Made by a program: the position numbers and the translations under genes. Shown here piece by piece: positions 16,019-35,384 of a stretch of DNA of 43,932 nt (its first letter is position 1; every line of letters begins with the position of its first letter). Below the pieces are notes generated by a model. That model made no database searches, had not been told where the DNA came from, and saw only the letters and a program-made list of their open reading frames with translations. The DNA comes from Syntrophus sp. (in: bacteria). GTDB lineage: Bacteria > Desulfobacterota > Syntrophia > Syntrophales > UBA8958. The stretch lies in assembly GCA_003451635.1 (NCBI GenBank), contig DMAT01000275.1, positions 1-43,932 on the forward strand, given 5' to 3'.

Positions 16019-16026
16019 GATTTGTA

Positions 16027-16419: not shown

Positions 16420-19269
16420 TTATGTTGATGCAGTTGTTTTATGTTCCGAGCCTTGTAGCAAGCGGTCGAACTTGGCAGGATCGAATAGGGTAGGGGCGAT
16501 CTGAAGGGCAATCTGGAGGGCAATCTCTGCGAAAGACCATTGGCGGTGAAGACAAAATAATTCGGCAACATCATAGATGATCTGCCCCAAATCGTCTAAA
16601 GTCTCGATGGTGCGCCTGGAATTCAACCCCACGATAACATTTAGCGATTCTAAGGATCGAATCAATTCATCCGTGGCTTCCATCCGCCAGTACAGGCTGA
16701 CCTGTAAAAGCCTCTTTTCAATCTGTTCCTCCGCTGTAAGTCCCTCATCAGCGGCTTTTTGCAGGCAATCGGCGGCAGTTTTCAGATCGCCCTCTTTCAG
16801 GAAAGATTTGCCGATATCCATATAAAGCTCTTTATGCTCCTCCAGTAGAGACGGGACTGAGTCGACACTCAGACCCGCTTGATAGGCAATCTTTACCCAT
16901 GGCAAAGCCTTGTCAACCATTTGTTGACTGAAATAGAAGCGGCAGATGTTCTCGGCCTTCTGCGGGCTTTTGCCTGCATCTTCAAAAGACTTCATAAAGA
17001 GGGACTCGGCTGATTCAAAATCTTTTTCCAAAAAGTGGATTAATGCCAAACCGAAGTAGATTTCATTCCTTTTGGAAAAACTGTGACAGTAAAAACTCCC
17101 GAAGACCAATGGGTCTTTTTCAAAGGCGTTATAGATGCGAAGATAGCGCTCCGACATTACTCTGCATAGGTCCGTCGCCTTTTTACGGAAATAAATGGCG
17201 GCAAGGAGATGACACATATCCATATGCATGGGAAATGAATCAAGGGCCTCCAGGCAGATACGTTCCGCATCATCGATTCTGTCCAGGGAGTGGTATCCCT
17301 GTGCTACGGAATAGAAGACGGTCATGAAAAATCCGGTCTTAAGTTGCTTGCGGCGCATGATTTCCAGAGCCATTTCACCATACTCGACGGCCTTGTCAAA
17401 CTCGCGGTGCATCGAATAAGATGCGGATAATTGATAGATACTATAGACATCCTCCGGATCTCTCGCCAGGGTCTCCTGTAAAAGAGTTGTCGTCCGGATG
17501 TGCTTCGCTTCCATTTGTTCTGCAGAGAGATCATAACCGTAGTGGCGGATGCGAATTTCACCGTAGGCTTCCACACCGTGAGCCTGCAACTGGTTGTGGA
17601 CTTTCCGAACATAGGTCATCCCCATATGATTGCGGAACAGCCGGATCAGATAAAAGACGCCGTGGACGGAACCGTCCTTTTTTACGTCGTAAAAACGGCA
17701 GTGAAAATAATCTGCCTTCCCTCCCCGGACGGTGTCCTTCAGTATGTATCCGTCTTCCGGAAACAGCTCTTCGTCGGCGTCCAGTTGAAAGATCCAGTCG
17801 CCGGTGGCATAGGAGAGCGACTGATTCCGGTGTTTGCTGAAGTCGTTTTCCCAGGGATGATGATAAACACGAGCGCCGTAGCTTGCAGCGATTTCAATGG
17901 TTCTGTCCGTTGAACCGGTATCGACGATAATGATCTCATCAACATATTTACTGACGCTCTTCAGACAGCGCTCCAGGCAGGCTTCTTCATTCTTCACAAT
18001 CATACAAAGGGAAATCGTGGGTATCCTTGCTTCGTTCTTTCGTTCTTTAAGAATAGACGGCGCCTTCCCCTTGCGCCGACCCGCTGCACCGGCTATTTTT
18101 AGCCATAGCTGTGCTTTTTCATCTCTCTGGTGTTTAAGATAGAAACGGCTGATATCCTCCGCCATGCCTATCTCTTTTCCCGTATCTTCATAGCCTTTGC
18201 GGAAGAAATCGTCTGCCCCGTCAATGTCGCCTCCCTGAAAATGAATGCAGGCCAAGCCGAAATAGATTTTATGCCGCAAGGTGAAGCTGTGGCAGTAAGT
18301 GTTTCCCATGAGGGAGGGATTTCGTTTCAGTGTCTCATGTACCTCAAGGAAGCTCAGGCACATCTTCCGTGATTCTTCATAATCCTGCTTTTCAAAATAT
18401 ATGGAGGCCAGGAGATGATAAACATCAAGGTGATTGGGATAGATCGCGAGGGCCTCCCGGCAGAGACGTTCCACTTCTTCAAGACGGTTAAGGGCGTAAT
18501 AGGCTTGGGCGATAGTGTGGAAAGCGGTCAAAAAATAATCGTTATTCATGCATTTATGCCGTCTTAGTTCGAGGACCTTTTCGCCGTATTCGATGACCTT
18601 CTCAGGCTCCCGGTGCATGGAATAAGATGTGGCTAACTGATAGAGGCAGTAGGCGTCTTCAGGATCTGCGGCAAGCATCTCCTTGAGCAGTGTTGTGGTG
18701 CGGAGATGCTTGGCCTCCATAGCCTCAGGCGAGAGATCGTATCCGTAGTGTTTAACCCGGATATCGCTGTAAGCCTCCCTGCCACTTGTGAGGAGTTGGT
18801 TATGGACTTTCCGGGCATAGGTCATTCCCATGCCGTTACGGAAGAGGCGGACCAGGTAGAAAACTCCGTGGATGGAACTATCCTTATTTATATCGTGAAA
18901 TCGGCAATGGTAAAAATCGGCCTTATCCTGCCGGATGATTTTCCGCAGGCGCGGCCCGTCTCCGGCAAAGAGTTCCTCGTCGGCGTCCAATTGTAATATC
19001 CATTTACCTTTCGCGTAACTCAGGGATTGATTGCGGTGCTTGCTGAAGTCTTTTTCCCAGGGGTGATGATAGATCCGGGCGCCGTAGCTTTCAGCGATCC
19101 CAACAGTGCCGTCCGTTGAACCCGTATCGACGATAATGATCTCATCGACGTAATTGCAGACACTCTCCAGGCAGCGCCCCAGGCAAGCCTCCTCGTTCTT
19201 CACAATCATGCACAGCGAGATTGATTGGTGCTTTTGGTTGGAGGGCCTACTTTTGGGTATTTTCTTCAT
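16420..19269 (-). CDS. Tandemly duplicated GT2 glycosyltransferase-TPR protein (two GT2-TPR modules in one 949-aa ORF); putative flagellin glycosyltransferase
   Basis: ISLCMIVKNEEACL..CL.SV..YVDEIIIVDTGSTD.T..IA.SYGAR.YHHPWE.DFSKHRNQSLSYA.G.WI.QLDADEELF occurs twice, 402 codons apart. Each copy is followed by TPR-like helical repeats. The gene lies immediately upstream of flagellin. Confidence 0.8.
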   Translation of the reverse strand: MKKIPKSRPSNQKHQSISLCMIVKNEEACLGRCLESVCNYVDEIIIVDTGSTDGTVGIAESYGARIYHHPWEKDFSKHRNQSLSYAKGKWILQLDADEELFAGDGPRLRKIIRQDKADFYHCRFHDINKDSSIHGVFYLVRLFRNGMGMTYARKVHNQLLTSGREAYSDIRVKHYGYDLSPEAMEAKHLRTTTLLKEMLAADPEDAYCLYQLATSYSMHREPEKVIEYGEKVLELRRHKCMNNDYFLTAFHTIAQAYYALNRLEEVERLCREALAIYPNHLDVYHLLASIYFEKQDYEESRKMCLSFLEVHETLKRNPSLMGNTYCHSFTLRHKIYFGLACIHFQGGDIDGADDFFRKGYEDTGKEIGMAEDISRFYLKHQRDEKAQLWLKIAGAAGRRKGKAPSILKERKNEARIPTISLCMIVKNEEACLERCLKSVSKYVDEIIIVDTGSTDRTIEIAASYGARVYHHPWENDFSKHRNQSLSYATGDWIFQLDADEELFPEDGYILKDTVRGGKADYFHCRFYDVKKDGSVHGVFYLIRLFRNHMGMTYVRKVHNQLQAHGVEAYGEIRIRHYGYDLSAEQMEAKHIRTTTLLQETLARDPEDVYSIYQLSASYSMHREFDKAVEYGEMALEIMRRKQLKTGFFMTVFYSVAQGYHSLDRIDDAERICLEALDSFPMHMDMCHLLAAIYFRKKATDLCRVMSERYLRIYNAFEKDPLVFGSFYCHSFSKRNEIYFGLALIHFLEKDFESAESLFMKSFEDAGKSPQKAENICRFYFSQQMVDKALPWVKIAYQAGLSVDSVPSLLEEHKELYMDIGKSFLKEGDLKTAADCLQKAADEGLTAEEQIEKRLLQVSLYWRMEATDELIRSLESLNVIVGLNSRRTIETLDDLGQIIYDVAELFCLHRQWSFAEIALQIALQIAPTLFDPAKFDRLLQGSEHKTTAST

Positions 19270-19278
19270 TCACAGGAC

Positions 19279-20202
19279 TCATATTGTCAGCGACAGGGGA
19301 GTATGATTTATGTAGTTTATCCCGAGATGGTCGCATTCAATGCACAAAGGTTGACTTATTTTCTGCTGTTGGATTTCTTCCAGGGACATATTGAATATCT
19401 TTCCAAGGGAATAACTTTGTGAATTTCGGCCCACGCCGCAGCATAGCAAGACTTCGCAATTTTCGTTGATGCTGAGAAAATCATTTTGGGGGCAATCGTA
19501 ATGAAGAGGCTTGTTATTAAGGACATCACTGTAATAATAAGTAAGCAATTCGCTCGTTGCGTCTTTTAATGTTTCGTAGGGCATCTTGTTTGTCAGGTAG
19601 TCTCTGAACATGTTGTAATCATTAAAATAAGCGGCAGAATAAGAGATGGGTACGTTGAGTGATTCTGCAAATTGCTTTGCCAAAAACACCTCCCAGATGT
19701 TGAATTGATATAGGTGATACGCGATAAAGAATTTGTTTGTTAAAAAGCCGTTTTCTGAATAACGGTTAATGAGGTTGACCATATTCGATTTAATTTTTTC
19801 AAAGTTGAACCCGTGAATACGATCGTAAGATTGCTGGCTGAAACCGGACATGGAAATTATAGCTTGTGACAGGTTTTTGAGTTCCCGGGCATTCAGATAA
19901 ACCGGAAATGAAGCATTTGTACTGAAGGAATAACACAAATCATGATCAAGCAAAATTTCGATAATATCTTTGATTCGGGGATGCAATAAAGGCTCTCCCC
20001 ACTGGTAAAGTGAAATTAAAGTCTGATGTCCAATTATATGATTATCAAGTAAATACCGTATGGCCCGTTCAAAATCACTGATTCCGATAAAGCTTGCCTG
20101 TTTTCTGTGAAATCGTCCGGAAATGCTTTTCTTACCATTTGCACAGTATTTACAGTTTGCGTTACATATCCCGGAGATTTCGAAATAGAGTCTTTTATAC
20201 AT
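19279..20202 (-). CDS. Radical SAM protein with C-terminal SPASM/twitch-like Cys cluster
   Basis: CNANCKYC (CxxxCxxC) at the N-terminus. C-terminal CPQNDFLSINENCEVLLCC and CIEC motifs. Confidence 0.75.
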   Translation of the reverse strand: MYKRLYFEISGICNANCKYCANGKKSISGRFHRKQASFIGISDFERAIRYLLDNHIIGHQTLISLYQWGEPLLHPRIKDIIEILLDHDLCYSFSTNASFPVYLNARELKNLSQAIISMSGFSQQSYDRIHGFNFEKIKSNMVNLINRYSENGFLTNKFFIAYHLYQFNIWEVFLAKQFAESLNVPISYSAAYFNDYNMFRDYLTNKMPYETLKDATSELLTYYYSDVLNNKPLHYDCPQNDFLSINENCEVLLCCGVGRNSQSYSLGKIFNMSLEEIQQQKISQPLCIECDHLGINYINHTPLSLTI

Positions 20203-20254
20203 CCTTTATCCACCTGTCTTTGATAAATTCTTCACGATTATAAAATCAAGCCTT

Positions 20255-21166
20255 TCAGGAGGCCTCGTTCACGGTTTCCATTATGTTCATATCCGCCTTA
20301 TCCCTGTGCAATCGCTTCAAAGGAACATCGCACCGAGAACAACGCTCAAGATCATTTATTCGGCCCTTGTTCATAAGCGCACGCGCATCCCTGAATACGT
20401 CGCCGTTAAAGATGTCGACAGGATCCTCGTCAAAGGCGCTACCAAGTTTGTAAAAGGATGCATCAACGTCAATACAGCAAAACTGAATCTTCCCGGAGGC
20501 ATTGATAGTGATGCGGTCGAATATGTAAGGACAGGAAACGCTTTTGGGGATAATGCATTCCGCATCCGCCCAATTATGTCTGGGAAAACGCAGCACCATG
20601 TCCCCTCTTGTCAAAGTGAGATATTGAGACCAGTAATCTGTGTATTCCTGCCATTCATCTTCGTTCAATTCCTGTTCGATCATCCTGACACATATTGTCG
20701 TGGCATATTTTCCTTCGTTGCGAAGCCGTATGAACATCTGGATATTATCGATAACCCGCTGGAAGGACAATCCCTGCCTGATTTGCTCAAACCGATCTTT
20801 CCTCAGGCTATCGATACTGAATATGACGATGTCTATCCCCGTGTCCAAAAGCTTGGATGCACGCCGCTTATCGAGCATGCCGCCATTTGTGGGCAGGCTT
20901 ACTTGACGGAAGCCGGCATCTTTGGCTACCCCTATTTTCACAAAGACATTCGGGTCGAGGATGGCCTCACCCAAGCCCACGATGTTCAGATACTCAATGC
21001 TTTCTCTGTATGGAATCAGCTTGTTTACAATATTGACAAACATTTCCTGTGACATGAGTTGAGGACGTTGGGAGGACGAATGAATAGAGCACATTATGCA
21101 TGAGGCATTGCAGATCCCATGCACTGTTTCAATATCAATAATGGAAGGAGTAATCATATCATTCAT
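20255..21166 (-). CDS. Radical SAM / SPASM-domain protein
   Basis: CNASCIMC (CxxxCxxC). C-terminal CPYIFDRITINASGKIQFCC (Cx12Gx4C) and CSRC motifs. Confidence 0.8.
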   Translation of the reverse strand: MNDMITPSIIDIETVHGICNASCIMCSIHSSSQRPQLMSQEMFVNIVNKLIPYRESIEYLNIVGLGEAILDPNVFVKIGVAKDAGFRQVSLPTNGGMLDKRRASKLLDTGIDIVIFSIDSLRKDRFEQIRQGLSFQRVIDNIQMFIRLRNEGKYATTICVRMIEQELNEDEWQEYTDYWSQYLTLTRGDMVLRFPRHNWADAECIIPKSVSCPYIFDRITINASGKIQFCCIDVDASFYKLGSAFDEDPVDIFNGDVFRDARALMNKGRINDLERCSRCDVPLKRLHRDKADMNIMETVNEAS

Positions 21167-21212
21167 TGGAATATATTTTCCTGATCAACAGTGTTGCCTC
21201 ATAGTCAGGGCC

Positions 21213-21962
21213 TTATTTTATACATCGCAGGTAACCGCCCGGATTGCAGGTGAGTAGTAATTTTCTGTCATAGTAATTGTCGATGATGAAGCGGTCAGTC
21301 TCCTTCAAGAAAGACTCCAAGGCAGTTTTCGGGTTGTTTCCCGGCCCCCAGGGTCGCGGCCTGTGATCTTGGGGCGGAATATCTTCGACGATGGTATCAC
21401 CGCAGATCATGTAGTGCCCCTTGCCGACGAAGGCTGAGTAGAGGCGAAGTTCGGCAAGGACATGGTCGTGGCTGTGATAGGAATCGAGAATCACGAGAAC
21501 CTCACGGCAATCCTTAATGATGGACCGGATATGGGCAATGGTGTCAGATTCAACGGAAGAGCCGGCAATGAGATCGATTTTATTGGATAATTCACCATGA
21601 CTACTCAGCCTGGCCTTGAGGTCATCGGGGATGTATATGTCAACTCCGATGACTCTTTCCCCACCTAATACCGTAAGCAGAGTTGAGCAAAAAAGGAGCG
21701 ATCCACCCCATGCGACGCCGAGTTCAACGACATATTTTGGACGTGTATGGTAAATAATATCCTGGAGGGCAAACATGTCCTGTGGTAGATTCAGGATTGG
21801 TTCACCGAACCAGTTCGTCTGGTGAACCCAGTGATATTTGTCGGCGTCAATGACCAGATCTCTGGCCCTCTTAACAAGTCCCTCGTCCTGGCACATGGCC
21901 AGAGCTGATTCTGTGCGCAGATCCTCGAATTCTTCCCTGTTCAGCATCTTTTTTTCAGTCAT
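21213..21962 (-). CDS. CmcI/cephalosporin-hydroxylase-family SAM-dependent methyltransferase (sugar O-methyltransferase-like)
   Basis: W.HQTNWFGEPILNLPQDMFALQDIIYHTRPKYVVELGVAWGGSLLF...VILDSYHSHDHVLAELRLY is typical of the CmcI family. Confidence 0.7.
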   Translation of the reverse strand: MTEKKMLNREEFEDLRTESALAMCQDEGLVKRARDLVIDADKYHWVHQTNWFGEPILNLPQDMFALQDIIYHTRPKYVVELGVAWGGSLLFCSTLLTVLGGERVIGVDIYIPDDLKARLSSHGELSNKIDLIAGSSVESDTIAHIRSIIKDCREVLVILDSYHSHDHVLAELRLYSAFVGKGHYMICGDTIVEDIPPQDHRPRPWGPGNNPKTALESFLKETDRFIIDNYYDRKLLLTCNPGGYLRCIK

Positions 21963-22899
21963 GGTAACCTCCAGCGCCTTGCAGCAGGCCTATGGTTTCG
22001 GTTATGTTCTTCTCAATGGAACCGGTAAAGGCAAAACCAAGATCCCGGAAACGTCGGCTTGAGACGGTATATGACAATTGGTTCATGATTTCTGTATCCA
22101 CATAATCGATCGTGACTTCACCCACCTTTGGTCTGATCCAGGAGATGACGTCGTTGACAGTCAGGTTCTCCGTTACGACGTTGTAGACGCGACCATCGAA
22201 ACAGCGCTTGTCGAGAAGGAAAAAGAGGGCATTCATAGCATCGTTGATGGAAAGATAGGGACGTTTCTGGTGCAGGGCCGTCCGCCAGACCGTGAGGGGC
22301 TGTCCCAGAACGGCCTGCCAGCAAAATTTGTTGGCAGCCGTATGAAACCGCATCCCCGGCGAGATGCCAACAATCGTCCCGAAGCGGCAGGTCACGAAGC
22401 TCAGGCTATTTACCGCCGCCATATCTTTCAGGAGACGCTCTTCCCGAAGCTTGGTTTCCGCATAGGGACTCTGTGGCTTCAGCTCTCCCTCATCGCAATC
22501 CTCATCAACAATTGACTTCTGGGTGCCATAGACGCTGGTGGAGGATAAATGGATCATGGGGATTCCCAGGAGAACGCAACTGTCGGCTACTCTTTTAGTG
22601 GTGTTGTAATTCACATGTTCAATCTTTTCCCTGATCTGGAAGCTTCCCGCGGCGTCGGTAATAGCGGCGAGGTGGATGACCGCATCGACACCGGTCATGA
22701 TGGATGGCAGGTCAAGCTCAAGAACATCTCCTTCAATAAAGCGGTAAATGCACTCACCGGGAAGGTTAAACAATGAGGTGTATCGTTGGGTGCACAGGTT
22801 GTCGATCAAGACGAGTTCCGACGACGGAAAATGGTAGGGAAACTCCCTGATCAGCCTTGATCCGATATGTCCCAACGGGCCTGTGACAAGTATCTTCAT
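21955..22899 (-). CDS. NAD-dependent sugar epimerase/dehydratase/reductase (extended SDR)
   Basis: MKILVTGPLGHIGSRL Rossmann motif and YAETK (YxxxK) catalytic motif. Confidence 0.8.
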   Translation of the reverse strand: MKILVTGPLGHIGSRLIREFPYHFPSSELVLIDNLCTQRYTSLFNLPGECIYRFIEGDVLELDLPSIMTGVDAVIHLAAITDAAGSFQIREKIEHVNYNTTKRVADSCVLLGIPMIHLSSTSVYGTQKSIVDEDCDEGELKPQSPYAETKLREERLLKDMAAVNSLSFVTCRFGTIVGISPGMRFHTAANKFCWQAVLGQPLTVWRTALHQKRPYLSINDAMNALFFLLDKRCFDGRVYNVVTENLTVNDVISWIRPKVGEVTIDYVDTEIMNQLSYTVSSRRFRDLGFAFTGSIEKNITETIGLLQGAGGYHD

Positions 22900-22903
22900 G
22901 ATA

Positions 22904-23914
22904 TCACCTTAGGTATTTTTCCAGACAGGTCTCATAATACCCTTTTGTCATCAAAAGTCCGGTTTTCAGATCGGTCATAGGCTTCCAGTTGACAAGGGAT
23001 TTTATCTTCTTGTTGCTGATAACGGCGTCGCCGATCTCCAAAGGTTTTCTGTCTTTCGGCCACTCGACTAATTTGACTTTGCCTGCTCCGATATGCCTTA
23101 TTGTGGCCTTGGCGATGTCCGCGACACTGAAATGTTCGTCGCCGACGGCGAAGATTGTCTCGTTATTTGTCTTTTCAGTCTGAGACGACATAATTAAGGC
23201 GGCAACCACGTCATCGACAAAAATGGAGTTTCTTTTCTGTGCACCGTCGCCGAAAACAGTTATTGTCTTGTTCTGAAGTGCGAGGCCAATGAAGTAGTTG
23301 TTAAAAGTGAAATCGCTGCTGTGGATGCTCGCCCGGGGGCCGAATGTGTTGGAGATCCTTATGACGGTTGCCCTCAAGCCATAGATATTCGCATAGATCA
23401 GGACATATTTCTCAGCAACGGTTTTGTTTGCGGAGTAGATATCAGTCGGGAATTCAGGGTGATTCTCATCGGCGGGTTGATAGTGGAGCTTTCCCAACTG
23501 GGTGCTGGTTCCCAGATGGATAAATTTCGCCTCCCGGTTGAAACGTCGGATGGCCTCCAGTTGGTTGATGACGGCACGGCTGTTCACGTCAAGGTTCATC
23601 CAGGGTTCACGGATGGAAAAGGGATGAGAGGTGGAGGCGGCGCAGTTGAAGATAATATCCTTTTCAAAAATTTGCTCAGACAGCCGATCCATGTTTAAGA
23701 TGTCATAGTGACAAAGTTGGACATAGTCTCTGATGTCGTGGATATTAAATAGATTTCCTCCTGAGCTGGGGTCCATGCAGTCATAAATGGTGACCTCGGC
23801 GCCTAGCTCCAGGCACTTGTGGGTGAGATTGCTGCCGATGAATCCGAGACCGCCGGTAATAAGAACCCTCTGGCCGCGCAAGGATGGAAGTTTAATGCTA
23901 TGGTATTTATTCAT
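22904..23914 (-). CDS. NAD-dependent sugar epimerase/dehydratase (extended SDR)
   Basis: VLITGGLGFIGSNL Rossmann motif and YSANK (YxxxK). Confidence 0.8.
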   Translation of the reverse strand: MNKYHSIKLPSLRGQRVLITGGLGFIGSNLTHKCLELGAEVTIYDCMDPSSGGNLFNIHDIRDYVQLCHYDILNMDRLSEQIFEKDIIFNCAASTSHPFSIREPWMNLDVNSRAVINQLEAIRRFNREAKFIHLGTSTQLGKLHYQPADENHPEFPTDIYSANKTVAEKYVLIYANIYGLRATVIRISNTFGPRASIHSSDFTFNNYFIGLALQNKTITVFGDGAQKRNSIFVDDVVAALIMSSQTEKTNNETIFAVGDEHFSVADIAKATIRHIGAGKVKLVEWPKDRKPLEIGDAVISNKKIKSLVNWKPMTDLKTGLLMTKGYYETCLEKYLR

Positions 23915-23925
23915 TTATTCCTCAC

Positions 23926-25065: not shown

Positions 25066-25070
25066 TCTTT

Positions 25071-25865: not shown

Positions 25866-25898
25866 CCTTTTACCTACCCTTCATCGGCTTATCGCCTA

Positions 25899-26357: not shown

Positions 26358-27462
26358 TGTATCTCTCCCAAAATTCCCGGATTGACGCCACTATCGAGTG
26401 AAGCTCTGTCTCCTCCAGTTCCGGATATATGGGCAGTGAGAGGATCTCGGCAGCCACTTTTTCTGTCTCTTCCATGCCGTCTCCGCAACGAAGACGGCAA
26501 TGGTAGGCTGGTTGCAAATGGATCGGAACAGGATAATGGATAAGGGCCCCGATGCCATGTTCCGCAAGAAAGGACCGCAGAGCGTCTCTTCTTGGCGTTC
26601 TTGCAACATAGAGATGAAAAACGTGACTTCCCTGGGGATGGGTTTTCGGCAGCACCAGGTTCATATCAGCGAGGAGCCGGCTGTATTGATCGGCGATTTT
26701 TTTACGGCGGATATTATCATCATCCAGGGTTGGGAGCTTTACCCGCAAAATAGCCGCCTGGATCTCGTCGAGGCGCGAGTTCCCCCCTGGAATGGAACTG
26801 ATATATCGTTCGGCCCATCCGTATTCCCTGAGCAGTCGGCAGCGCCCGGCAAGATCCTTATCGCTTGTCGTCACCATGCCCCCGTCTCCACAGGCGCCAA
26901 GGTTCTTAGTCGGGTAAAAGCTGAAACAGGCTATATCTCCCCAAGTGCCGACGGGTCTTCCCCGGTAAGTCGCCCCGTGGGCCTGGGCGCAATCTTCTAT
27001 GACGCGGAGTCCCCGGGGGCGGGCGATATCCAGGATGGCCGCCAGGTCTGCGGGCTGTCCGTAAAGATGCACGGGGATAACTGCCTTGGTTCGGGGCCCG
27101 ATGGCGGATAACAGTTTGAGCGGAGCCATCGTGAAATAGTCCGGCTCGATATCCACCAGGACGGGGACGGCCCCGGCCGCTTCGATGGCCGCCACCGTGG
27201 CCACGGCCGTATGGGATACGGTAATTACTTCATCACCCGCACCAATGCCGCAGGCTTTTAAGGCCATCTGGATTGCCTCCGTACCGCTTCCCACACCGAT
27301 ACCGTGGGTGCAGCCGATGTATGCGGCAAATTCACTTTCAAAAGCGGCAACCTCTTTCCCCAGGATATACCAGCCTCTTTCCATGACATTCCTGACGGCG
27401 ACGTCGATGGCTTCTTTGCGTGCGTGATACGAGGCGAGGGGATTACTGGCTGGTATCATCAC
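26350..27462 (-). CDS. DegT/DnrJ/EryC1/StrS-family PLP sugar aminotransferase (second copy)
   Basis: [48 protein letters not shown]...[10 protein letters not shown]...[11 protein letters not shown]...[10 protein letters not shown]....[25 protein letters not shown]. Confidence 0.85.
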
Positions 27463-28676
27463 GGGATGTGAACCTCAGGCACATAAAGTATCCATTTGCC
27501 GCCGGCGGCTGTGAATGCTTGCTCCTTGGCCATAATCTCTTCAGCATGATTCCAGCCGAAGAGAACTGCATAATCGGGATAACGGGCCTTAAACTCCTCG
27601 TAAGGACGGATGGGGATATGAACTCCAGGACTGTATTTCCCCTGTTTGATCGGGGTGGTGTCGCTGATATATTCCAGAAGATCCGGCGTGATGCCACAGA
27701 AGTTCGTTACAGTTGTGCTCTTTGACGTCGCGGCGTAGGCGGCAACCCGTTTCCCTTGCCGTTTCAGGTCTTTTAAAAGGGCGATGAGGTCTTGCCGGGA
27801 TTTCTCCACATGACTGCGAAAAATTTTGTAGGTTTCCCTATGATCCAACTTTTGCGTCCTTTCCCTTTCGTCCAACTTCCGGACGGCCGCGGAGACTGGA
27901 TAGGCGCTACGGTGGGAAATGACATACCGCATCGATCCGCCATGGACGTTCTGCGGCTGAACATCGACAACGTCCATGTCATATTGAGAAAATAGATAAC
28001 GTACGGATGCAAGAGAGAAATAGAAAGCATGCTCGTCGTATATCTGATCATAAGATGTCTTCTCGATGATATCTCCCAGATAGGGATCTTCAAAAATAAC
28101 AAATCCTTCCGGTTTCATAAGGATCTTGATCCCAGCGATGACGGAGTGAAGGTAAGGGATGTGACACATTACATTAGCCCCGAGAAACACATCGGCCTGA
28201 CCATGAAGATCCACGATTTCCCTGGCTAGTGTTTCATCAAAGAAACGGCAGATCGTCTGTACGCCATTTTCTCTGGCGACGGCGGCTACATTCGCCGATG
28301 GCTCGATGCCAAGATGCCGAATGCCCGCCTTGGCGAAGTGTTGAAGCATGATCCCGTCATTACTGCCGACTTCCACGACAAAGGGGTCGTTTTTCCCCAG
28401 GTATCTTTCTCGCGCGAGTAGAGCGAGGGACTCAAAGTGATCGGCCATCCGTGCCGAGGTAGAGGAAAAGAAGGCGTAATTTTCATGGAACATCCGCTCA
28501 CGGTCAACCAGTTCGGTGAGTTGTACCATCTTGCAGCCATCACAGAAACCAACGTTGAGTTCAAAAAAATATTCTTCAGAAAACTGCTCAGCCGTAAGAA
28601 AACCATTCGCGATCGGCATCCTGCCGAAGGATATGAAGGGGCTTATGTTCTTATTGCAGACGAGACATTGTGTCAT
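27459..28676 (-). CDS. NDP-hexose C-methyltransferase-like enzyme (Zn-ribbon + class I SAM MTase + C-methyltransferase C-terminal domain)
   Basis: N-terminal [24 protein letters not shown]...CDGC Zn-binding motif, then VVEVGSNDG MTase motif. The architecture resembles TylCIII-type sugar C3-methyltransferases. ATG 28676 overlaps the upstream stop (ATGA). Confidence 0.7.
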
Positions 28677-31000
28677 GATTTGGCCTCCTGCCGGTATTTC
28701 ATATCTTTTATGACAACTCGGGACATTCTTTCGGCATCGGCTATACATTTTTTGTAAGTGTCATGGAGATGCCCATTATCGGGGAATAAAAAAATGGCTT
28801 CCCTGATACGTTTTAGAACATCAGTAATGTTAAAATATTCCAGATACTTAGATTCTTTGCGTATACCGTCATCATAAGACCGACTGTCCCATGTAAAATA
28901 ATAGACGTCTTTTTTGACAAGCTGCATAAGGCGCTCAATTTCATTATCTAATTGTTGCTTCCATCGTATCCTGAAACAATGAACAATTTCATTAGTCAAT
29001 GCCTCTTTTCGTTCTGGAGCGATTATCGAATGATTTATCAATTCGCAGTGTGCATATGTAAATCTGCAGAAAGGAAGGGAAAGTCCCTCTTCAAGGGTCA
29101 CGGGATCATTCGAGTAGAGGATTTCGGCATAATGTTGAGCCATGGTTACATCATATTTCCTTGTAAGTATCCGGATGAATAGGGCATCATCAATTTGGAT
29201 GATCTTGCCTAACAAAGCTATTTCGGCAAGAAAGAGATTGTCGTGGGCATAGGCATTCTTTACGCGCATCGAGCGCGTTTTCCGCACGTAGCGATTCCTG
29301 AAGAGTCCATAGATGGCATTACACATCTGCAATTCCCGGATAACATGGACAAATCTTTCACAGGGATCATCCTGATCCGCCTTCACCGAGTCGTTTCCTA
29401 TGCCTAAGTATTCGTAATCTTTGTTAAATACTTTAGATCGCGGATAAACCAAAGCTATGGATTCCTCCTTGTCCCTCTCCATCCACTCCATACACTTGCT
29501 GATGCAAGACTTTTCCAACCGGTCATCGTAGGAAGCCCACATAAAAAACGGAGACGGCGCCAGTTCAATCATGCGTTGAAAAATATGACAGCCAAGGTAA
29601 TCAATTCTATCATCTGTCGGTAGGTATTTCACTCGACGATCCATCTTCTGGTAATTAGTGCATACTTCCCGGACAAAGGGATCGGATCCATGATCGGATA
29701 CCATCAATTCGATATCTGTGTAATCCTGGGATAGGATGGACTCGATTGCATCGGCCAGCATGGCGCCGCCGCTGTAAAGAGGCAGGCCAATTGTAACGAC
29801 AGGCCGTTTCTTAATGTGGCCTTTCTGCTGCGTTGACCTTTGCCGTGCATTTCCAGTCTTATCGTTCACGTATCCGTATTTTAATGCATATTTCCAGCAT
29901 GATTGTTCAATGGTCTGTCTGAACTCGTGCGACCACTCGCTCACCGCAGGGAAGCGGCCATAATTATTGGCATTCCTTTTAACTTTGATTACCTCCGAAA
30001 CGCGGGAGGAAGAAAAACCCTTTAAATTAAGAAAATCAAACAACTTACGGATGGTCCGGACGTTGCCAAAGAGATCTTCAAAGTGAAGAACCATAAACCT
30101 GTCTTGATCAAGGTTTTCCGTTACCTTTTCAATGAGGTTATTGAACTCATTCCATAGCCAGCAGATTTTATCTGCCTGGCTCTTCTTCTTCCATTGGATA
30201 TAAGTATCGGTATCCTTTGATGGAGTAAATCGATATGTATCATCTCCATGACCGTGATAAAAGTTTTGGAAAAGGGCAGAGCGGGTAAAGGTAAGAGGAT
30301 CACGCACAAGAATGACGAATTTGGCTTTAGGAATTGTCTCTGCTAAGACATCAGAAAAGGCGGTAATGGCCGGCGATGTTTCTCCAAAGACAAAGCCATC
30401 TTTTGATGTTTGCTGAATAAGGGGATAATGATAATTGGATAAAAATTCCTTCTTATCGATCCTGTTCCAGAATGCCTCCAAAGACCCCTGTCCCACCTCT
30501 GGCCGGGACGTGTGGAATGACCTGACGTTTTCTGCGGTGTTTATTACTTCATTCAAGGTTTTGCTGCCGCAGCGACCGGAAGAAAGAACGAAGAAAGATT
30601 CTGCATTAAGAACTTCTGATGGCACGGTCCGATTCTTCCCTTGGCAGATCTGTTTTTTGATATCCTCCAGAAATAATCCAAGTTCATGATCCTGGGTAAC
30701 CTTTGCCATTGCCATTTCCATGTACGGAATAAACTGAGACGCCTCGCCTTGTTTATTTAACAAATCGTATAAATTCATCAGTCCATCTTTATGTACAGGA
30801 TCAATAGACAGGATTTTTTTGAAAATATCTTGGGCAAGATCATTCTGTCCCTCATAAAACAGAATAACGGCAAGGTTGTTGAGACCCTCCAAGTGATAAG
30901 GATTAATTGTTATGATAGACAAGAAACAACCCTTCGCTTCTTGCAAATTGCCTTCAATGTAAAGCTTCTTACCGCTTATGATTAAATCTTCGATATTCAT
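28673..31000 (-). CDS. Three-domain protein: N-terminal TPR, central sulfotransferase-like domain, C-terminal GT2 glycosyltransferase
   Basis: TPR (YIEGNLQEAKGCFLSIITINPYHLEGLNNLAVILFYEGQNDLAQDIFKKILSIDP). Sulfotransferase-like 5'-PSB loop FFVLSSGRCGSKT and 3'-PB motif FVILVRDPLTFTRSA. GT2 motifs VVTIGLPLYSGGAMLADAIESILSQDYTDIELMVSDHGSD and a YDD motif. Confidence 0.65.
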   Translation of the reverse strand: MNIEDLIISGKKLYIEGNLQEAKGCFLSIITINPYHLEGLNNLAVILFYEGQNDLAQDIFKKILSIDPVHKDGLMNLYDLLNKQGEASQFIPYMEMAMAKVTQDHELGLFLEDIKKQICQGKNRTVPSEVLNAESFFVLSSGRCGSKTLNEVINTAENVRSFHTSRPEVGQGSLEAFWNRIDKKEFLSNYHYPLIQQTSKDGFVFGETSPAITAFSDVLAETIPKAKFVILVRDPLTFTRSALFQNFYHGHGDDTYRFTPSKDTDTYIQWKKKSQADKICWLWNEFNNLIEKVTENLDQDRFMVLHFEDLFGNVRTIRKLFDFLNLKGFSSSRVSEVIKVKRNANNYGRFPAVSEWSHEFRQTIEQSCWKYALKYGYVNDKTGNARQRSTQQKGHIKKRPVVTIGLPLYSGGAMLADAIESILSQDYTDIELMVSDHGSDPFVREVCTNYQKMDRRVKYLPTDDRIDYLGCHIFQRMIELAPSPFFMWASYDDRLEKSCISKCMEWMERDKEESIALVYPRSKVFNKDYEYLGIGNDSVKADQDDPCERFVHVIRELQMCNAIYGLFRNRYVRKTRSMRVKNAYAHDNLFLAEIALLGKIIQIDDALFIRILTRKYDVTMAQHYAEILYSNDPVTLEEGLSLPFCRFTYAHCELINHSIIAPERKEALTNEIVHCFRIRWKQQLDNEIERLMQLVKKDVYYFTWDSRSYDDGIRKESKYLEYFNITDVLKRIREAIFLFPDNGHLHDTYKKCIADAERMSRVVIKDMKYRQEAKS

Positions 31001-31020
31001 ATCAACTCTCGTTGACCAAG

Positions 31021-32613
31021 CTATGCAGAAATCAGACCAGCGGGAGTTTTCTTGAAGCTCTTTTTACATGCCGGACACCGGAATAATTTTGCAAGCTTTT
31101 CGCCGCAGATGCAGGCCCAGCCAATTTGTTTGGCCGGATTGCCGACCATCAGGGCGTGATCGAGAACATCTTTAGTAATCACAGCCCCAGCGCCAACGAA
31201 TGCATAGTTACCGATGGTATGGCCGCAGACGATGGTGCAGTTTGCTCCCAAGGTCGCGCCTTTTTTGACGAGGGTAGGGCGTACCTGGTCCATCTTGGAG
31301 AATTTGGCGCGGGGGTTATGGATATTTGTAAAGACCATGGAGGGTCCGCAGAAGACGCCGTCTTCCAAGGTGACGCCTTTGTAAACACTGACGTTGTTCT
31401 GGATCTTGCAGCCATCGCCGATATTGACATCAGGTCCGATGACGACATTCTGACCGATGTTGCATTGCTCACCGATGGTGGTTCCGGACAAAACGTGGGA
31501 GAAGTGCCAGATATTAGCTCCCTTGCCGATACGAACACCGTCATCGATAATTGCCGTCTCGTGAACAAAGGCGTCTTTGGGTGGCGAGAATTTGACGGTT
31601 TTAGGTGTTGACCCGACGGAAATGGGGACGTCCTTTTCCTTCATGGATTTCTGACTCAACTCCAAAACATGAAGGACCCGCAGGCCTTCCTCGCCGGAGG
31701 TGAAGGGTTGCTGTCCGGTTGTAATCGCTCCGATAAAAGCCCGGCATTCCGCCTTCAATGGTTCTTCCCATTGATCGGAAAGACTGACGGCGATGGCCGC
31801 GGCCTTTTCCGCAATGGGCAGCCCGTCTTTCCAATTGATGATATGTGGATATAGAACAAGTTTTTCATCGACATCTTGGGTATCGTCAAAGACCAGCATT
31901 CCCTGGCTTCCCACGACGACAAGACGCTGCTCCTTATAAGGATTCAGCCAGCTCACGAAGATGTGAGCGCCGATTCCCGAGGGAAACTTGAGGTTCGTCA
32001 TAGTGACGTCGGCGATGGAGGCATGGAGAAAATTACTGCCCACGGCGTCCACATAAGAGGGATCTTCACCGACGATGCTGAGGATCAGGGATATGTCATG
32101 GGGGGCAAAGGACCATAGGATGTTCTCTTCCCGTCGTATTTTGCCAAGACTGAGGCGGCGGGAATAGATATACTGAAGACGGCCGATCTTTCCATCAGCA
32201 ATCATCTTCTTCAGTCTGACGACCCCCTGGTGATAATGAAGAATATGACCGACGAAAAGTATTTTCCCGGCAACACGGGCCTTGGCGACTAATTGGCGGC
32301 CCTCGTCATAGGTGACGGCCAGGGGCTTCTCGACGAAAACGTGTTTTCCGGCTTCAAGGGCCTGGGCAGCAAGAGCGAAATGGGTAACCGCCGGCGTGGC
32401 GATGACCACCGCCGTGATGGATGGATCATTAAGCGCGCCGTCAAGCTGACCGATGCAGGGAACATCGGGGTAATCTTTGCGCATTTGGACTTGTATTTGA
32501 CCGTCCCCATCGCAAATGGTTTTTAAAACTCCTAATTGATGGAAATTCCGTACAAGGTTTTTCCCCCAGTAACCGGCGCCGATTACGGAAATCTTTATAT
32601 TGCTTTTTTTCAT
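31021..32613 (-). CDS. Fusion of Gfo/Idh/MocA oxidoreductase (WbpB-like) and left-handed beta-helix acyl/acetyltransferase (WbpD-like), with a C-terminal Cys4 ribbon
   Basis: N-terminus [13 protein letters not shown]...VVIATP...H......[15 protein letters not shown]-terminal half carries hexapeptide repeats [64 protein letters not shown]. Tail [18 protein letters not shown]. Confidence 0.75.
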
Positions 32614-32702
32614 ATGGTGTTTTTTATCCTCCTTTATATAGGTTACCCATTATCAGAAAAGAAGATATGTGGCAATTCAATCTGATATCATATGTTTGCT
32701 AG

Positions 32703-34598
32703 TTATTGACCATATTTTGAGTTTATCGATTGAATATGTTTTTTTGCGAGTATGCTGCCCGGATCGATGGAAATCGCTTTATGAAAATAATGAAGTGCCT
32801 GTGAGGAATCACCCAGGTGCAGGCTTATTTCGCCCAGGGTGATCAGGGCGGGAATAATATCACCGCTATTTGCTATTTCCATTTTTAAGCAGTCAATTGC
32901 ATTATTATATTTGCCGAATTTCAAAAATATAATTGCCTTCTGAATGTTTACTTTTTTAAATGCCGGCGCGAGTTGCAGGGTCTTGTCGAAATGCTCCAAT
33001 GCCTCGGCATGGTTTCCAAGGACGCTGTGGACAAGCCCGAAGGTATAGCGAATTGCCGGATGATTTATGATTGTGTCGGATGCGGTTTGCAGGATTCTCA
33101 GGGCCTCATGATCTTCATTTCGCCGCAGCAGGATACCGACCAGATTGTTGTATGCCCCTACATGAGAATTAGTCCGCTTGATGGTTTCACGGTAGGCATC
33201 TTCTGCCTCAGTCATTCTGCCCGCCTTTTCCAGGGCCATGGCTTTCAAAAAGAATGACTCCGAATTATCCGAAGAAATGCGCAGGCCTGTAGAGGTAACT
33301 TCCATCGCCGTTTGCGGTTCAAGTCCCAGCGATTGACTTTTGCTATTACCGGCAACATCGTGGGCAGGTTGTTCGTGCGATGCTGCGGCGACACTCTGCG
33401 CCTCGATCGAAGGAGGGGAGAGACGGTGTGCCTCTTCCATATATAAGCGGGCGCGATCGGGGTGGCCGGCCTCAGAGAGACTGATTCCTGCCTGGCGGCA
33501 GAGGAATGCCTTGTCGGGCGCGATTTCAAGGGCCCGGGCGTAAAGAATTTCCGCACCTTCCGGATCTCCCAAGCCTAGCTTCGCCATCCCCATCCAGCAG
33601 CAGATCTTCCATTCCTCGCTGTAGGTGGCAATCTCCACCATGTCCAGGCCGATTTCATGGTTCCGGTAGCGTTCGAGGGCTTCCCGGTACCTGTTTCCGG
33701 ACTCGATTATTCCGGACCAGTCCTTTTTCATAAGGCTGATCAACGTCTGGCTGGCGAAAATATCGATGTGACCTCCATAGCGGTCCAGGGCCTGCCGGCA
33801 GATTATTTCGGCCTCATCATTGCGTTGCAGTTGAATGTATGAGCGGGCGGCCGTGTAGTAGGCCTTCAAATACTGTTTGTGGGTGATCTGCTGCGCCTCT
33901 ACCAGTTCAATTGTGGTCAGGGACTCCCGGAGCGCCTCCTCGTTCTTGTTCATCGACGCGAAAGAGTTGCTGAGATAGAGATGGGCCAGGGCGTTTTCGG
34001 GATTCTCTACGATCTGTTTTTGCAGGAGTGTCGCCGTACGTTCGAACTTCTTCCGGGCCGCTTCGGGTCCCTGGTCGTAACCGTAGTGGATGATGCGTCC
34101 CAGTGAGGCCGCGTGGTTTTTGAAACCCAGGAGATAGTTGTGGACGATACCCTCATAGCGGATTCGTCCGTTCGATCGAAAGATCCTGATCGAGTCAAGG
34201 CAGACGGTTTCTTTCCCCTCATTGCAACTGTTTTCCACCTGCAAGGACAGCGCCTCGATCCCCTGCTTTTCGGCTAGAGCGACTTCCTCACGCAGGCTTC
34301 GCTGTGAAGAAGGCCGATATTGCTCGTCGGCGTCGATGATGAAGATCCAGCGCCCCTTGGCGTAGGAGATGGACTGGTTACGGTGGAGGCTGAAATCGTC
34401 CTGCCAGGGGTGGTGATAGATGCGGGATCTGAAGCTTTTTGCGATCTCTACGGTACGATCAGTCGAACCGGTGTCGACGATGATGATCTCGTCAACGTGG
34501 TCAACGACACTTTTTAGGCAGCTCCCGATGAAGGCTTCTTCATTCTTGACGATCATGCAGACAGAGAGGGTAGGTGGCTTACCTTTTTTCAATTTCAA
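32703..34598 (-). CDS. GT2 glycosyltransferase-TPR protein (third copy of the module in 16420-19269)
   Basis: LSVCMIVKNEEAFIGSCLKSVVDHVDEIIIVDTGSTDRTVEIAKSFRSRIYHHPWQDDFSLHRNQSISYAKGRWIFIIDADEQY followed by a long TPR region. Confidence 0.8.
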   Translation of the reverse strand: MKLKKGKPPTLSVCMIVKNEEAFIGSCLKSVVDHVDEIIIVDTGSTDRTVEIAKSFRSRIYHHPWQDDFSLHRNQSISYAKGRWIFIIDADEQYRPSSQRSLREEVALAEKQGIEALSLQVENSCNEGKETVCLDSIRIFRSNGRIRYEGIVHNYLLGFKNHAASLGRIIHYGYDQGPEAARKKFERTATLLQKQIVENPENALAHLYLSNSFASMNKNEEALRESLTTIELVEAQQITHKQYLKAYYTAARSYIQLQRNDEAEIICRQALDRYGGHIDIFASQTLISLMKKDWSGIIESGNRYREALERYRNHEIGLDMVEIATYSEEWKICCWMGMAKLGLGDPEGAEILYARALEIAPDKAFLCRQAGISLSEAGHPDRARLYMEEAHRLSPPSIEAQSVAAASHEQPAHDVAGNSKSQSLGLEPQTAMEVTSTGLRISSDNSESFFLKAMALEKAGRMTEAEDAYRETIKRTNSHVGAYNNLVGILLRRNEDHEALRILQTASDTIINHPAIRYTFGLVHSVLGNHAEALEHFDKTLQLAPAFKKVNIQKAIIFLKFGKYNNAIDCLKMEIANSGDIIPALITLGEISLHLGDSSQALHYFHKAISIDPGSILAKKHIQSINSKYGQ

Positions 34599-34634
34599 TT
34601 TTCCATTTACTAGACTGTATGTATTGTCGCTATG

Positions 34635-35384
34635 CTATTCTGCAGCGTTCTGTTTCCGAACGTAGGACAGCAGGGCCTTCCCCTCCGCAAATTCCGGATT
34701 GATATCCAGCCCCTGTAATATCGCCTCTTCAGCATCCTGCCATTCTTTCCTTTCAAGGTAGGCCCGGGCGATGTTGTAATACAATCCCTCATCCTCAGGA
34801 TGAAAGACAAGGGCTTTACGAAACTCGGCAATGGCGTCGTTGATATTTCCCGCTTTTCGATATGCAATGCCCTTGGTGTTGCAAAGCTGCAAAATCAGAT
34901 AATTCATTTCCGTATCTTCGCCAAGAATTGCCTTGGCTTTTGCGAAAGCGCCGTTATCGATAAATTCCTTGGCCTTTTGGACCAGCATTTCATGTGCAGA
35001 TTCGCTTGCGTCATTGTTTACGGTAGCATCGTCAATATCTTGACGTATCGATTCCTCCAATTGCGATGAAATCTCTTCTTCTTCAACCTGTAGGATTTGC
35101 TTTAAAAAATCCAGGGCGGTTTTAGCATCGTTATCACGAAAAGTTACAGGACCATACATCTCTTTAAAGGCCTTCGAGGCGGCCAGGTCTTGCTGAAAAA
35201 CGTTGATGTCGTTATTTAATTGCTTCTGATCGGCAGGGAGCATTTTGGTATGCATTGTTTTTTCCAAAACCTCTTTAAAACAATGAAGGCAGGAATAGAC
35301 ATTTTGCCGTTTTAGGTGCCGCTTTGCCTCGTCCAGCTTTTTTTGGATGACAGCGGCGTCTTCCCTTTTCAGTGGTTCTGCCAT
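34635..35384 (-). CDS. TPR-repeat protein, first gene of the minus-strand island
   Basis: C-terminal TPR motifs (GIAYRKAGNINDAIAEFRKALVFHPEDEGLYYNIARAYLERKEWQDAEEAILQGLDINPE). Function unknown. Confidence 0.6.
   Translation of the reverse strand: MAEPLKREDAAVIQKKLDEAKRHLKRQNVYSCLHCFKEVLEKTMHTKMLPADQKQLNNDINVFQQDLAASKAFKEMYGPVTFRDNDAKTALDFLKQILQVEEEEISSQLEESIRQDIDDATVNNDASESAHEMLVQKAKEFIDNGAFAKAKAILGEDTEMNYLILQLCNTKGIAYRKAGNINDAIAEFRKALVFHPEDEGLYYNIARAYLERKEWQDAEEAILQGLDINPEFAEGKALLSYVRKQNAAE

Follow-up and report, generated by a model that had tools for sequence, protein, structure and literature searches.

What is modified, and by which enzymes, at a locus where a long run of sugar-related genes leads directly into a flagellin gene? 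We addressed this question for contig DMAT01000275.1 (43.9 kb; the whole stretch of 43,932 nucleotides is called the window below), which belongs to a metagenome-assembled genome recorded at NCBI as 'Syntrophus sp.', an organism known from metagenomes only. The run comprises 15 tightly packed co-directional open reading frames (ORFs), g01 to g15, on the minus strand (16420-35384), immediately upstream of fliC-fliD-fliS and in the same orientation (Table 1). By analyzing their products and comparing gene neighborhoods in related genomes, we arrive with good confidence at the view that the run serves flagellin glycosylation in an uncultured Syntrophales bacterium, as an island built from a conserved frame and an exchangeable cassette.

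The island adjoins the flagellin gene and lies amid a cluster of flagellar genes, with flg, fli, flaG, fliW and csrA genes around it, and its products combine glycosyltransferases with nucleotide-sugar tailoring enzymes: four modules of glycosyltransferase family 2 (GT2), two DegT aminotransferases, two short-chain dehydrogenases/reductases (SDRs), a cupin, a C-methyltransferase, further methyltransferases and an acetyltransferase. Four gene pairs overlap at their stop and start codons, namely g05/g04 (ATGA, 28673-28676), g12/g11 (ATGACTGA, 21955-21962), g07/g06 (ATGATTGA, 26350-26357) and g06/g05 (GTGA, 27459-27462). The other intergenic gaps in the island measure 4-89 bp, and 401 bp separate its last gene from fliC. 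Since an identical gene order occurs on three independent metagenome contigs, and variants of it in other Syntrophales, the arrangement is not due to chance. An earlier note, made from the letters of this DNA, had given the coordinates, the shared orientation and the four overlaps; the ORF listing and a re-reading of the sequence agree with it on each. The hidden Markov model (HMM) search that it had proposed was run, and Pfam backs every domain call that it named. Its two radical S-adenosylmethionine (SAM)/SPASM enzymes are both radical SAM proteins and the first carries a clear SPASM domain, whereas that of the second is marginal.

The candidate transferases are the products of g02 and g15. 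In both, tetratricopeptide repeat (TPR) families directly follow each GT2 domain, which is the layout of GmaR, the experimentally established flagellin O-linked N-acetylglucosamine transferase of Listeria monocytogenes (PMC9638930). Among PDB sequences searched with phmmer, GmaR is the best match of g02 (8.2e-30), followed by the peptide S-glycosyltransferase SunS (1.3e-25), and the second module of g15 matches GmaR (22ao) at 6.8e-32 and SunS at 2.6e-19; the stretch matching GmaR spans about 190 residues in each case (residues about 8-197 versus 8-200). The first module of g15 is a paralogue of the second, and both match the same homologues. A DADE motif of the DxD type is found at residue 89 of g02 and at residues 95 and 497 of g15, and D92, A93, D94, E95 and E96 are invariant among 19 homologues; the C-terminal ~150 residues of g15 are also conserved among homologues. 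On this homology and on the genomic linkage described below, g02 and g15 are candidate GmaR-like flagellin O-glycosyltransferases, with transfer predicted to Ser/Thr. A glycocin system of the SunS type was considered and rejected: there is no Cys precursor peptide, C39-peptidase ABC exporter or thiol-disulfide oxidoreductase, the NCBIfam score for SunS is 169 bits against a cut-off of 350, and GmaR is the better match.

The family of g15 is large, with at least 7908 matches; loci found with the g15 profile include some from Paenibacillus, Clostridium and other Firmicutes. When species-representative genomes were scanned with a profile, the top 80 among at least 587 matches selected by pattern gave 79 loci, which come from Planctomycetota, Zixibacteria, Ignavibacteria, Chloroflexi, Actinobacteria, Firmicutes, Proteobacteria and other groups. 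A fliC, fliD or fliS gene lies within 10 kb in 40 of the 79 loci; among the 49 loci of 18 kb or more, 31 have one. For a random gene, we estimate the chance of lying within such a distance of a flagellin gene at about 1%. As the sample holds the best matches of a larger set, the fraction is to be read as indicative only. In the 38 loci with a fliC match, the median distance to it is 1.26 kb; it is within 3 kb in 27 of them and on the same strand in 30. Closer to the window, orthologues of g15 directly precede fliC on five related contigs (L004, L005, L011, L086 and L088), with a giant fliD and fliS after it.

Comparison with relatives divides the island into two parts. In a close relative, L086 (fliC 81% identical), DNA identity is 84-90% over two blocks of the window, 37402-31129 and 19235-14189; between them L086 has 3.6 kb with one 1080-aa protein in place of 11.9 kb. 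The frame outside the break consists of g01 (94% protein identity with L086), g02 (81%), g03 (89%) and g15 (77%). As the alignments read, the 19-kb island is a conserved frame of four genes plus a replaceable 11.9-kb cassette. Hypervariable content inside conserved flanks is a hallmark of flagellin glycosylation islands. The cargo ahead of the transferase-flagellin pair is again a different one in L004, L005, L011 and L088: L088 has genes for B12-radical SAM, HldE-like and nucleotidyltransferase proteins there, and L005 one for a pyruvyl transferase. Further radical SAM genes occur in the flagellin islands of L011 and L088. The 1080-aa protein of L086 (6652-9894) has an unusual all-in-one architecture of TPR repeats, a Glyco_trans_1_2-like domain and two class I methyltransferase domains.

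A variant of the cassette itself, 66-79% identical at the DNA level, is carried by two further Syntrophales contigs, L089 and L092, in the order TPR-sulfotransferase-GT2, C-methyltransferase, DegT, 152-aa cupin, acetyltransferase with NUDIX, DegT, two SDRs, CmcI and one radical SAM. Genes for a left-handed beta-helix (LbH) acetyltransferase and a NUDIX protein thus occupy the slot of g08, and g14 is not kept: only a remnant of about 230 bp matching its 3' end is left at its position (L089 10903-11133; L092 21274-21512). This indicates that g14 may have been gained recently in the window lineage or lost in L089 and L092. A search for horizontal transfer by composition gives no clear island signature, since the guanine-plus-cytosine (GC) content of the island equals that of the window (0.484); the only deviating genes are g14 (0.38) and g04 (0.42). 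In L092 an ISL3-family transposase gene (8030-9255) adjoins the cassette, between the TPR-only gene and the sulfotransferase-GT2 gene, which is consistent with a mobile cassette.

Table 1. Predicted genes and features of the flagellin-linked island and its flagellar neighbors (coordinates in the window)
Feature	Position	Strand	Description
g01	34635..35384	-	TPR-only protein, 249 aa; Pfam TPR_2, TPR_1, TPR_19; frame gene
g02	32703..34598	-	GT2 + TPR, 631 aa (617 aa on L001); Glycos_transf_2 1.6e-23 and many TPR matches; frame gene
g03	31021..32613	-	GFO/IDH/MocA dehydrogenase + hexapeptide N-acetyltransferase fusion (Pfam), 530 aa; frame gene
g04	28673..31000	-	TPR - sulfotransferase - GT2 - helical domain fusion, 775 aa
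g05	27459..28676	-	nucleoside diphosphate (NDP)-sugar C-methyltransferase, 405 aa; Pfam Methyltransf_13, Methyltransf_23, Methyltransf_14
g06	26350..27462	-	DegT aminotransferase, C3 type, 370 aa; Pfam DegT 5e-118
g07	25899..26357	-	short RmlC-like cupin, 152 aa; Pfam dTDP_sugar_isom 4.2e-23
g08	25071..25865	-	class I SAM methyltransferase, 264 aa; Pfam Methyltransf_25, _31, _11
g09	23926..25095	-	DegT aminotransferase, C4 type, 389 aa; Pfam DegT 2.2e-101
g10	22904..23914	-	extended SDR, 336 aa, epimerase/reductase-like; Pfam Epimerase, GDP_Man_Dehyd
g11	21955..22899	-	extended SDR, 314 aa, epimerase/reductase-like; Pfam Epimerase 1.5e-32
g12	21213..21962	-	CmcI / rhamnosyl O-methyltransferase family, 249 aa; Pfam RMNT_CmcI 7.7e-63
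g13	20255..21166	-	small radical SAM/SPASM enzyme, 303 aa; Pfam Radical_SAM, SPASM; CxxxCxxC at residues 19-26
g14	19279..20202	-	small radical SAM enzyme, 307 aa; Radical_SAM 1.1e-8, SPASM 0.0097; CxxxCxxC at residues 13-20
g15	16420..19269	-	tandem GT2 + TPR (x2), 949 aa; Pfam GT2 twice, TPR; immediately upstream of fliC; frame gene
cassette g04-g14	19236..31128	-	11.9 kb; DNA synteny with L086 ends at 31129 and restarts at 19235
fliC upstream region	16019..16419	-	sigma-28-like match 16298-16324, sigma-54-like match 16185-16200; consensus matches only
fliC	14891..16018	-	flagellin, 375 aa; Pfam Flagellin_N, Flagellin_C; presumed acceptor
fliD	11619..14717	-	cap protein, 1032 aa, unusually long; Pfam FliD_N, FliD_C
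fliS	11099..11554	-	flagellin chaperone; Pfam FliS 2.8e-36

The remaining two frame genes differ in kind from the transferases. A 241-aa TPR protein stands in the place of g01 in L092, and g01 is a possible flagellin-binding adaptor. The C-terminal half of g03 is an N-acetyltransferase of the WlbB/WbpD type (WlbB 3mqg, 1.3e-63 in PDB); its N-terminal half matches generic GFO enzymes only (7bvj, 3.3e-17), and the best NCBIfam name of the protein, UDP-GlcNAc 3-dehydrogenase, stays under the cut-off. UDP-N-acetylglucosamine (UDP-GlcNAc) could feed g03.

Most of the cassette resembles enzymes that remodel nucleotide sugars. The g05 protein matches KijD1 (3.2e-135) and TcaB9 (3.9e-133), both over residues 2-404, and mycarose 3-C-methyltransferase (5.7e-82) in PDB and has the Zn-binding N-terminal domain, the SAM domain and the C-terminal sugar-binding domain of the TcaB9/KijD1/TylC3 family; judged by its sequence it is a sugar C-methyltransferase of the TcaB9/KijD1 kind, whose substrate and methylated position are predicted at most. 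The two DegT enzymes fall into different classes, g06 grouping with C3 aminotransferases (DesV 2oga 3.9e-104, QdtB 9e-92, WbpE 1e-73) and g09 with C4 aminotransferases (perosamine synthetase 2e-65, ArnB 4e-45). The cupin g07 is probably an NDP-ketosugar epimerase (RmlC 2.5e-16, NovW 1.7e-8, EvaD-type 1.8e-7). Motifs read by eye show GTSTQ and Y160xxxK in g10, which matches UXS and GalE at about 1e-27, and SSTSV and Y146xxxK in g11; g10 lacks a TDE/TSE triad, and the canonical 4,6-dehydratase Thr-Asp/Ser-Glu triad was found in neither SDR by this reading. Homologues of the methyltransferase g12 occur in the flagellin islands of L004, L011, L089, L092 and L093.

These genes do point to the kind of product that the earlier note had proposed, a C-methylated, aminated, methylated and possibly sulfated sugar of the deoxyhexose type. 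They do not make up a pathway from a primary sugar. No sugar nucleotidyltransferase (NTP_transferase) was matched in any of the 38 window ORFs scanned against Pfam and NCBIfam, in agreement with what had been noticed before, and Pfam identifies neither a 2,3-dehydratase nor a 3,4-ketoisomerase of the FdtA family in the island; because of these three gaps, all textbook pathways are incomplete. The missing 2,3-dehydratase is an enzyme of the tetronitrose/kijanose route, and none of the tetronitrose/kijanose, Qui3N/Fuc3N, noviose and ManNAc3NAcA pathways is assignable. For the WbpA/B/E/D/I route to ManNAc3NAcA in particular, the acetyltransferase is clear and the C3 aminotransferase plausible, the 3-dehydrogenase is a generic GFO enzyme only, and no WbpA or WbpI type of gene is found in the island by Pfam. 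Given the lack of a nucleotidyltransferase and of a canonical 4,6-dehydratase, the precursors are probably made elsewhere in the genome. In a Desulfobacterales contig, L093, a nucleotidyltransferase, a dehydratase-like SDR and a full-length RmlC stand beside the C-methyltransferase gene, and comparison with this gene set suggests that the cassette may draw an NDP-4-keto-6-deoxyhexose from housekeeping genes. The exact glycan is not derivable from the sequence, and the product cannot be named.

The fourth transferase module belongs to g04. Its Sulfotransfer_3 (39.7 bits) and Sulfotransfer_1 (33.2 bits) matches both exceed the Pfam cut-offs and are accompanied by a GT2 match. An AlphaFold 2 (AF2) model with a predicted local distance difference test (pLDDT) score of 79 divides the protein into TPR repeats (1-119), a sulfotransferase-like domain (128-375, high confidence), a GT-A domain (about 400-610) and a helical tail. 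The loop for 3'-phosphoadenosine-5'-phosphosulfate (PAPS), FFVLSxGxCGTxT, and the LVRxP residues are invariant or nearly so in 25 homologues. The architecture occurs in about 40 sequence clusters from Syntrophales and Desulfobacterales, in whose flagellin loci it travels with C-methyltransferase, DegT and CmcI genes. The GT-A domain resembles SpsA, TarP and chondroitin polymerase, not GmaR, and for this reason we regard g04 as more likely to extend a glycan than to start one.

The radical SAM proteins g13 and g14 share 20% identity, and both have C-terminal cysteines. The g13 family consists of proteins of about 300 residues with at least 100 cluster representatives at E<=1e-30, and no member tested exceeds any NCBIfam cut-off. 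By sequence, g13 has only a weak match to BlsE in PDB. In two family members the enzyme is fused to another domain, an RmlC-like cupin in P0162 (514 aa) and a GT2 domain in P0203 (590 aa); these fusions, the sole informative evidence, point to a probable role of the family in sugar-nucleotide tailoring rather than in peptide maturation.

What the island lacks bears on where the glycan would be assembled. None of the 15 proteins has a predicted membrane span (19-residue Kyte-Doolittle window; the maximal mean of 1.84 is reached in Rossmann-type segments only), and Pfam finds no flippase, polymerase, ABC transporter or initiating phosphoglycosyltransferase domain in the island. Protein modification in the cytoplasm before export fits because there are no membrane spans and no export or lipid-carrier enzymes. 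The same absences bear on the idea that an O-antigen, capsule or exopolysaccharide locus has come to lie beside the flagellin genes by chance, an idea that we consider very improbable even though DegT, SDR, RmlC-like, CmcI and WlbB-like families are also common in O-antigen clusters. No chain-length regulator is present either, each of the four transferase modules has TPR repeats fused to it, and the linkage to fliC is conserved across relatives despite changing cargo. A polysaccharide locus dependent on Wzx/Wzy or on an ABC transporter was rejected on the lack of membrane and export components in the island.

The presumed acceptor has a central domain rich in hydroxylated residues: Ser and Thr make up 26% of the central domain of FliC and 25% of FliD, versus about 10% of the enzymes, and the FliC translation contains no Cys. 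The central domain of FliC is 66% identical with that of L086 and the termini 91-94%; greater divergence of the central domain is usual for flagellins. FliD carries a large insertion that separates its FliD_N and FliD_C regions, as well as a further extension, and measures 916-1053 aa in relatives with adjoining GT2-TPR genes. The gene fliC has its own promoter candidates. A sigma-28-like motif occurs once in the window, upstream of fliC (0 expected), and the sigma-54-like pattern TGGCAY-N5-TYGCW three times (0.15 expected), upstream of fliC, upstream of flgN (6249-6264, plus strand) and at the start of the annotated flgF ORF (1119-1134, plus strand); a looser sigma-54-like pattern also matches upstream of fliD (14819-14834, minus strand).

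Several observations weigh against flagellin glycosylation as the function of the island. We infer this function in the present organism from sequence; the linkage sample, a best-matches selection, has no matched control and is indicative only. In about half of the GT2-TPR loci sampled, no flagellar gene was detected within 10 kb, and therefore membership in the family alone is no proof of a flagellin target. None of the patterns that match at fliC, fliD, flgN and flgF gives a sigma-28- or sigma-54-like motif upstream of the island, and as fliC has a 401-bp region of its own, flagellar co-regulation is only putative. In a Foldseek search with the AF2 model of g13, sugar-acting and peptide-acting relatives are not separated. 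The top 50 fold matches of g04, in a search dominated by the GT-A and TPR parts, include a single sulfotransferase, human tyrosylprotein sulfotransferase 1 (TPST1, E 1.3e-6).

The loci that lack a flagellar neighbor bear on a first alternative, that the island glycosylates proteins of which flagellin is not the main one (the giant FliD, hook-associated proteins, pilins or a broader set), its adjacency to fliC reflecting a shared surface role only. TPR domains are able to recognise many partners, and FliD is not only rich in Ser and Thr but about equally large in relatives with GT2-TPR genes; that the giant FliD is glycosylated is pure speculation. We hold this alternative to be unlikely, given that the closest characterised homologue, GmaR, acts on flagellin and that the most conserved neighbor of the g15 homologues is fliC, usually immediately downstream on the same strand.

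The fold matches bear on a second alternative, which concerns a part of the cassette: beside glycosylation, the radical SAM/SPASM enzymes, the sulfotransferase or both would act on the flagellin polypeptide by epimerisation, oxidation, cross-linking or tyrosine sulfation. Peptide maturation is the role for which SPASM enzymes are best known, and g13 matches the folds of SkfB, EpeE, SuiB and anSME. However, BlsE, BtrN and DesII, which act on sugars, match equally well (BlsE, MoaA, BtrN, SkfB, EpeE, SuiB, viperin and DesII all score about 1e-9), g13 lies within a run of sugar-nucleotide enzymes with which it is inherited, its family is fused to an RmlC-like cupin or GT2, and a flagellin free of cysteine offers nothing for thioether chemistry. 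For g04, the TPST1 match and a TPR domain suggestive of protein contact make it possible that the modeled domain sulfates a protein residue instead of a sugar. Taken as a whole, modification of the polypeptide by these enzymes appears improbable to us, about as much so as a main acceptor other than flagellin.

If the island does glycosylate flagellin, the following scheme can be proposed. Starting from UDP-GlcNAc and/or an NDP-4-keto-6-deoxyhexose supplied by housekeeping genes beyond the window, soluble enzymes would tailor nucleotide sugars in the cytoplasm. The chemistry of the cassette would include C-methylation, amination at C3 and C4, epimerisation, keto-reduction or epimerisation by the two SDRs, O- and/or N-methylation, and one or two radical SAM steps on the sugar. 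The TPR domains would hold the GmaR-like GT2 domains of g02 and of both halves of g15 on flagellin, so that the first sugar or sugars are transferred to Ser/Thr of the central domain ahead of export via the flagellar type III system. With its different GT-A domain, its own TPR repeats and its sulfotransferase domain, g04 would then extend the glycan and probably sulfate it. The frame (g01, g02, g03 and g15) would stay constant and the cassette (g04-g14) would set the strain-specific sugar chemistry.

Parts of this scheme have counterparts in characterized systems. GmaR shares with g02 and g15 the N-terminal GT-A/GT2 domain followed by TPR, is the closest solved structure to both, and acts on flagellin in the cytoplasm (PMC9638930). 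It differs in transferring one simple sugar from a housekeeping donor and in its C-terminal MogR anti-repressor domain, whereas the island has three such modules, two of them in one protein, along with a large set of sugar-tailoring genes of its own; among the genes of the window, none was noticed to resemble MogR. In a 2026 survey of Clostridium islands, candidate flagellin glycosyltransferases were nominated by their 'GT2 domains with TPR repeats' (PMC13317340). These and other Firmicutes islands (Geobacillus, PMC5109656) likewise form a variable block with TPR-bearing GT2 enzymes beside flagellin genes, and those of Clostridium without nonulosonic acid genes encode deoxyhexose or aminosugar pathways, as here (PMC13317340); the lineage differs, being in our case a clade of strictly anaerobic syntrophs. 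In Caulobacter, the TPR domain of FlmG is necessary and sufficient for flagellin binding (PMC7591256). FlmG/Maf systems resemble the island in their working principle, flagellin being bound by a TPR domain and so brought to the catalytic domain of the same protein, but FlmG is a GT-B enzyme and Maf has another fold, and both use nonulosonic acids (pseudaminic or legionaminic) activated with cytidine monophosphate (CMP), for which the island has no genes. As summarised in PMC3927599, Pseudomonas syringae flagellin carries an oligosaccharide free of nonulosonates, composed of deoxyhexoses and a modified 4-amino-4,6-dideoxyhexose; its fgt1/fgt2 genes and viosamine island place aminotransferase, acyltransferase and methyltransferase genes near flagellin genes, a likeness to the present locus, and differ from it, as summarised there, in the transferases and gene set, with no C-methyl branch, sulfate or radical SAM mentioned. 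The enzymes related to g05 (TcaB9/KijD1), g03 (WlbB/WbpD) and g06 (WbpE/QdtB/DesV) serve antibiotic deoxysugar or O-antigen pathways.

The canonical route through pseudaminic or legionaminic acid and Maf was rejected. In the 38 ORFs, Pfam and NCBIfam match no synthase of the NeuB/PseI/LegI type, no CMP-nonulosonate synthetase/cytidylyltransferase and no Maf, and the LegC-like score of g09 (271 bits against a cut-off of 420) and the LegB score of g10 (119 against 475) are far below threshold. The HMM scan has therefore revealed no canonical pse/leg genes that the earlier note had missed when it reported the absence of these three types of gene. Its description of the locus as a flagellin-linked glycosylation locus outside the nonulosonic acid/Maf route is borne out by the gene content and by the neighborhood comparison in relatives, and its view of the TPR-bearing GT2 enzymes as likely flagellin transferases finds support in their GmaR homology and GT-then-TPR layout. 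Its framing of the locus as an undescribed, non-canonical system is overstated: the transferases are homologous to GmaR, their family is very large and flagellin-linked across phyla, the criterion for recognizing them has been published (PMC13317340), and flagellin glycans other than nonulosonates are already known, for example in Pseudomonas syringae (PMC3927599).

The surroundings of the island are those of a flagellar gene cluster. The left third of the window carries on the plus strand fliK-like and flhB-C-like genes, flgF, flgG, flgA, flgH, flgI, a rod-binding protein gene, flgM, flgN, flgK, flgL, csrA and fliW, and is followed on the minus strand by flaG, a 151-aa ORF, fliS, fliD and the flagellin gene. 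The flhB-C-like ORF (101 aa, 682-987, plus strand), directly after the fliK-like gene, matches the C-terminal part of FlhB only (Bac_export_2, profile positions 261-335). The 151-aa ORF between fliS and flaG (10656-11111, minus strand) has no Pfam or NCBIfam match, and the gene in its position in L005 has a faint FliT match; its product may be a divergent FliT-like chaperone. Past the island and divergent from it lie a gene for a response regulator-GAF-HD-GYP protein (35832-37328, plus strand), likely a c-di-GMP (cyclic dimeric guanosine monophosphate) phosphodiesterase, and then SLT, trmFO, topA and dprA. A conserved 70-aa ORF (35587-35799, plus strand), upstream of the regulator gene, also flanks the island; both it and the regulator gene are retained in L001 and L086, and a similar regulator is found beside the L005 flagellin locus.

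Filament assembly, surface charge, susceptibility to phages and the way other organisms recognise a cell are all influenced by flagellin glycans, and to our knowledge almost all that is known of these glycans comes from pathogens and nonulosonic acids. That flagellin islands are driven by GmaR-like GT2-TPR transferases is already known. New here are the lineage, the tandem-module transferase, the organization into frame and cassette, and the cassette chemistry (C-methyltransferase, sulfotransferase-GT2 fusion and small radical SAM/SPASM enzymes); the sugar product of the cassette is probably new as well. We found no mention of a C-methyltransferase, sulfotransferase or radical SAM enzyme in flagellin islands in the flagellin-glycosylation literature searched, which, its coverage being incomplete, is weak evidence of novelty. 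As a tentative further step, for which we would claim no great likelihood, the locus may make a glycan new to any flagellum: a C-methyl-branched, aminated and methylated deoxyhexose produced in part by an uncharacterised radical SAM/SPASM family, which a single TPR-sulfotransferase-GT2 enzyme would transfer and sulfate on the protein, the module being exchanged as a unit among Syntrophales and Desulfobacterales, perhaps under pressure from phages or from partner recognition in syntrophic consortia. The features of interest are the recurrent TPR-sulfotransferase-GT2 fusion, a TcaB9-like C-methyltransferase outside antibiotic pathways, and a radical SAM/SPASM family of about 300 residues linked by fusions to sugar-nucleotide enzymes; if the proposed functions are true, they would offer new sugar chemistry and enzymes for glyco-engineering, an incremental gain, as the general principle is known. 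For the organisms themselves, the locus points to GmaR-like GT2-TPR transferases as the anchors of highly variable flagellin islands in strictly anaerobic syntrophs.

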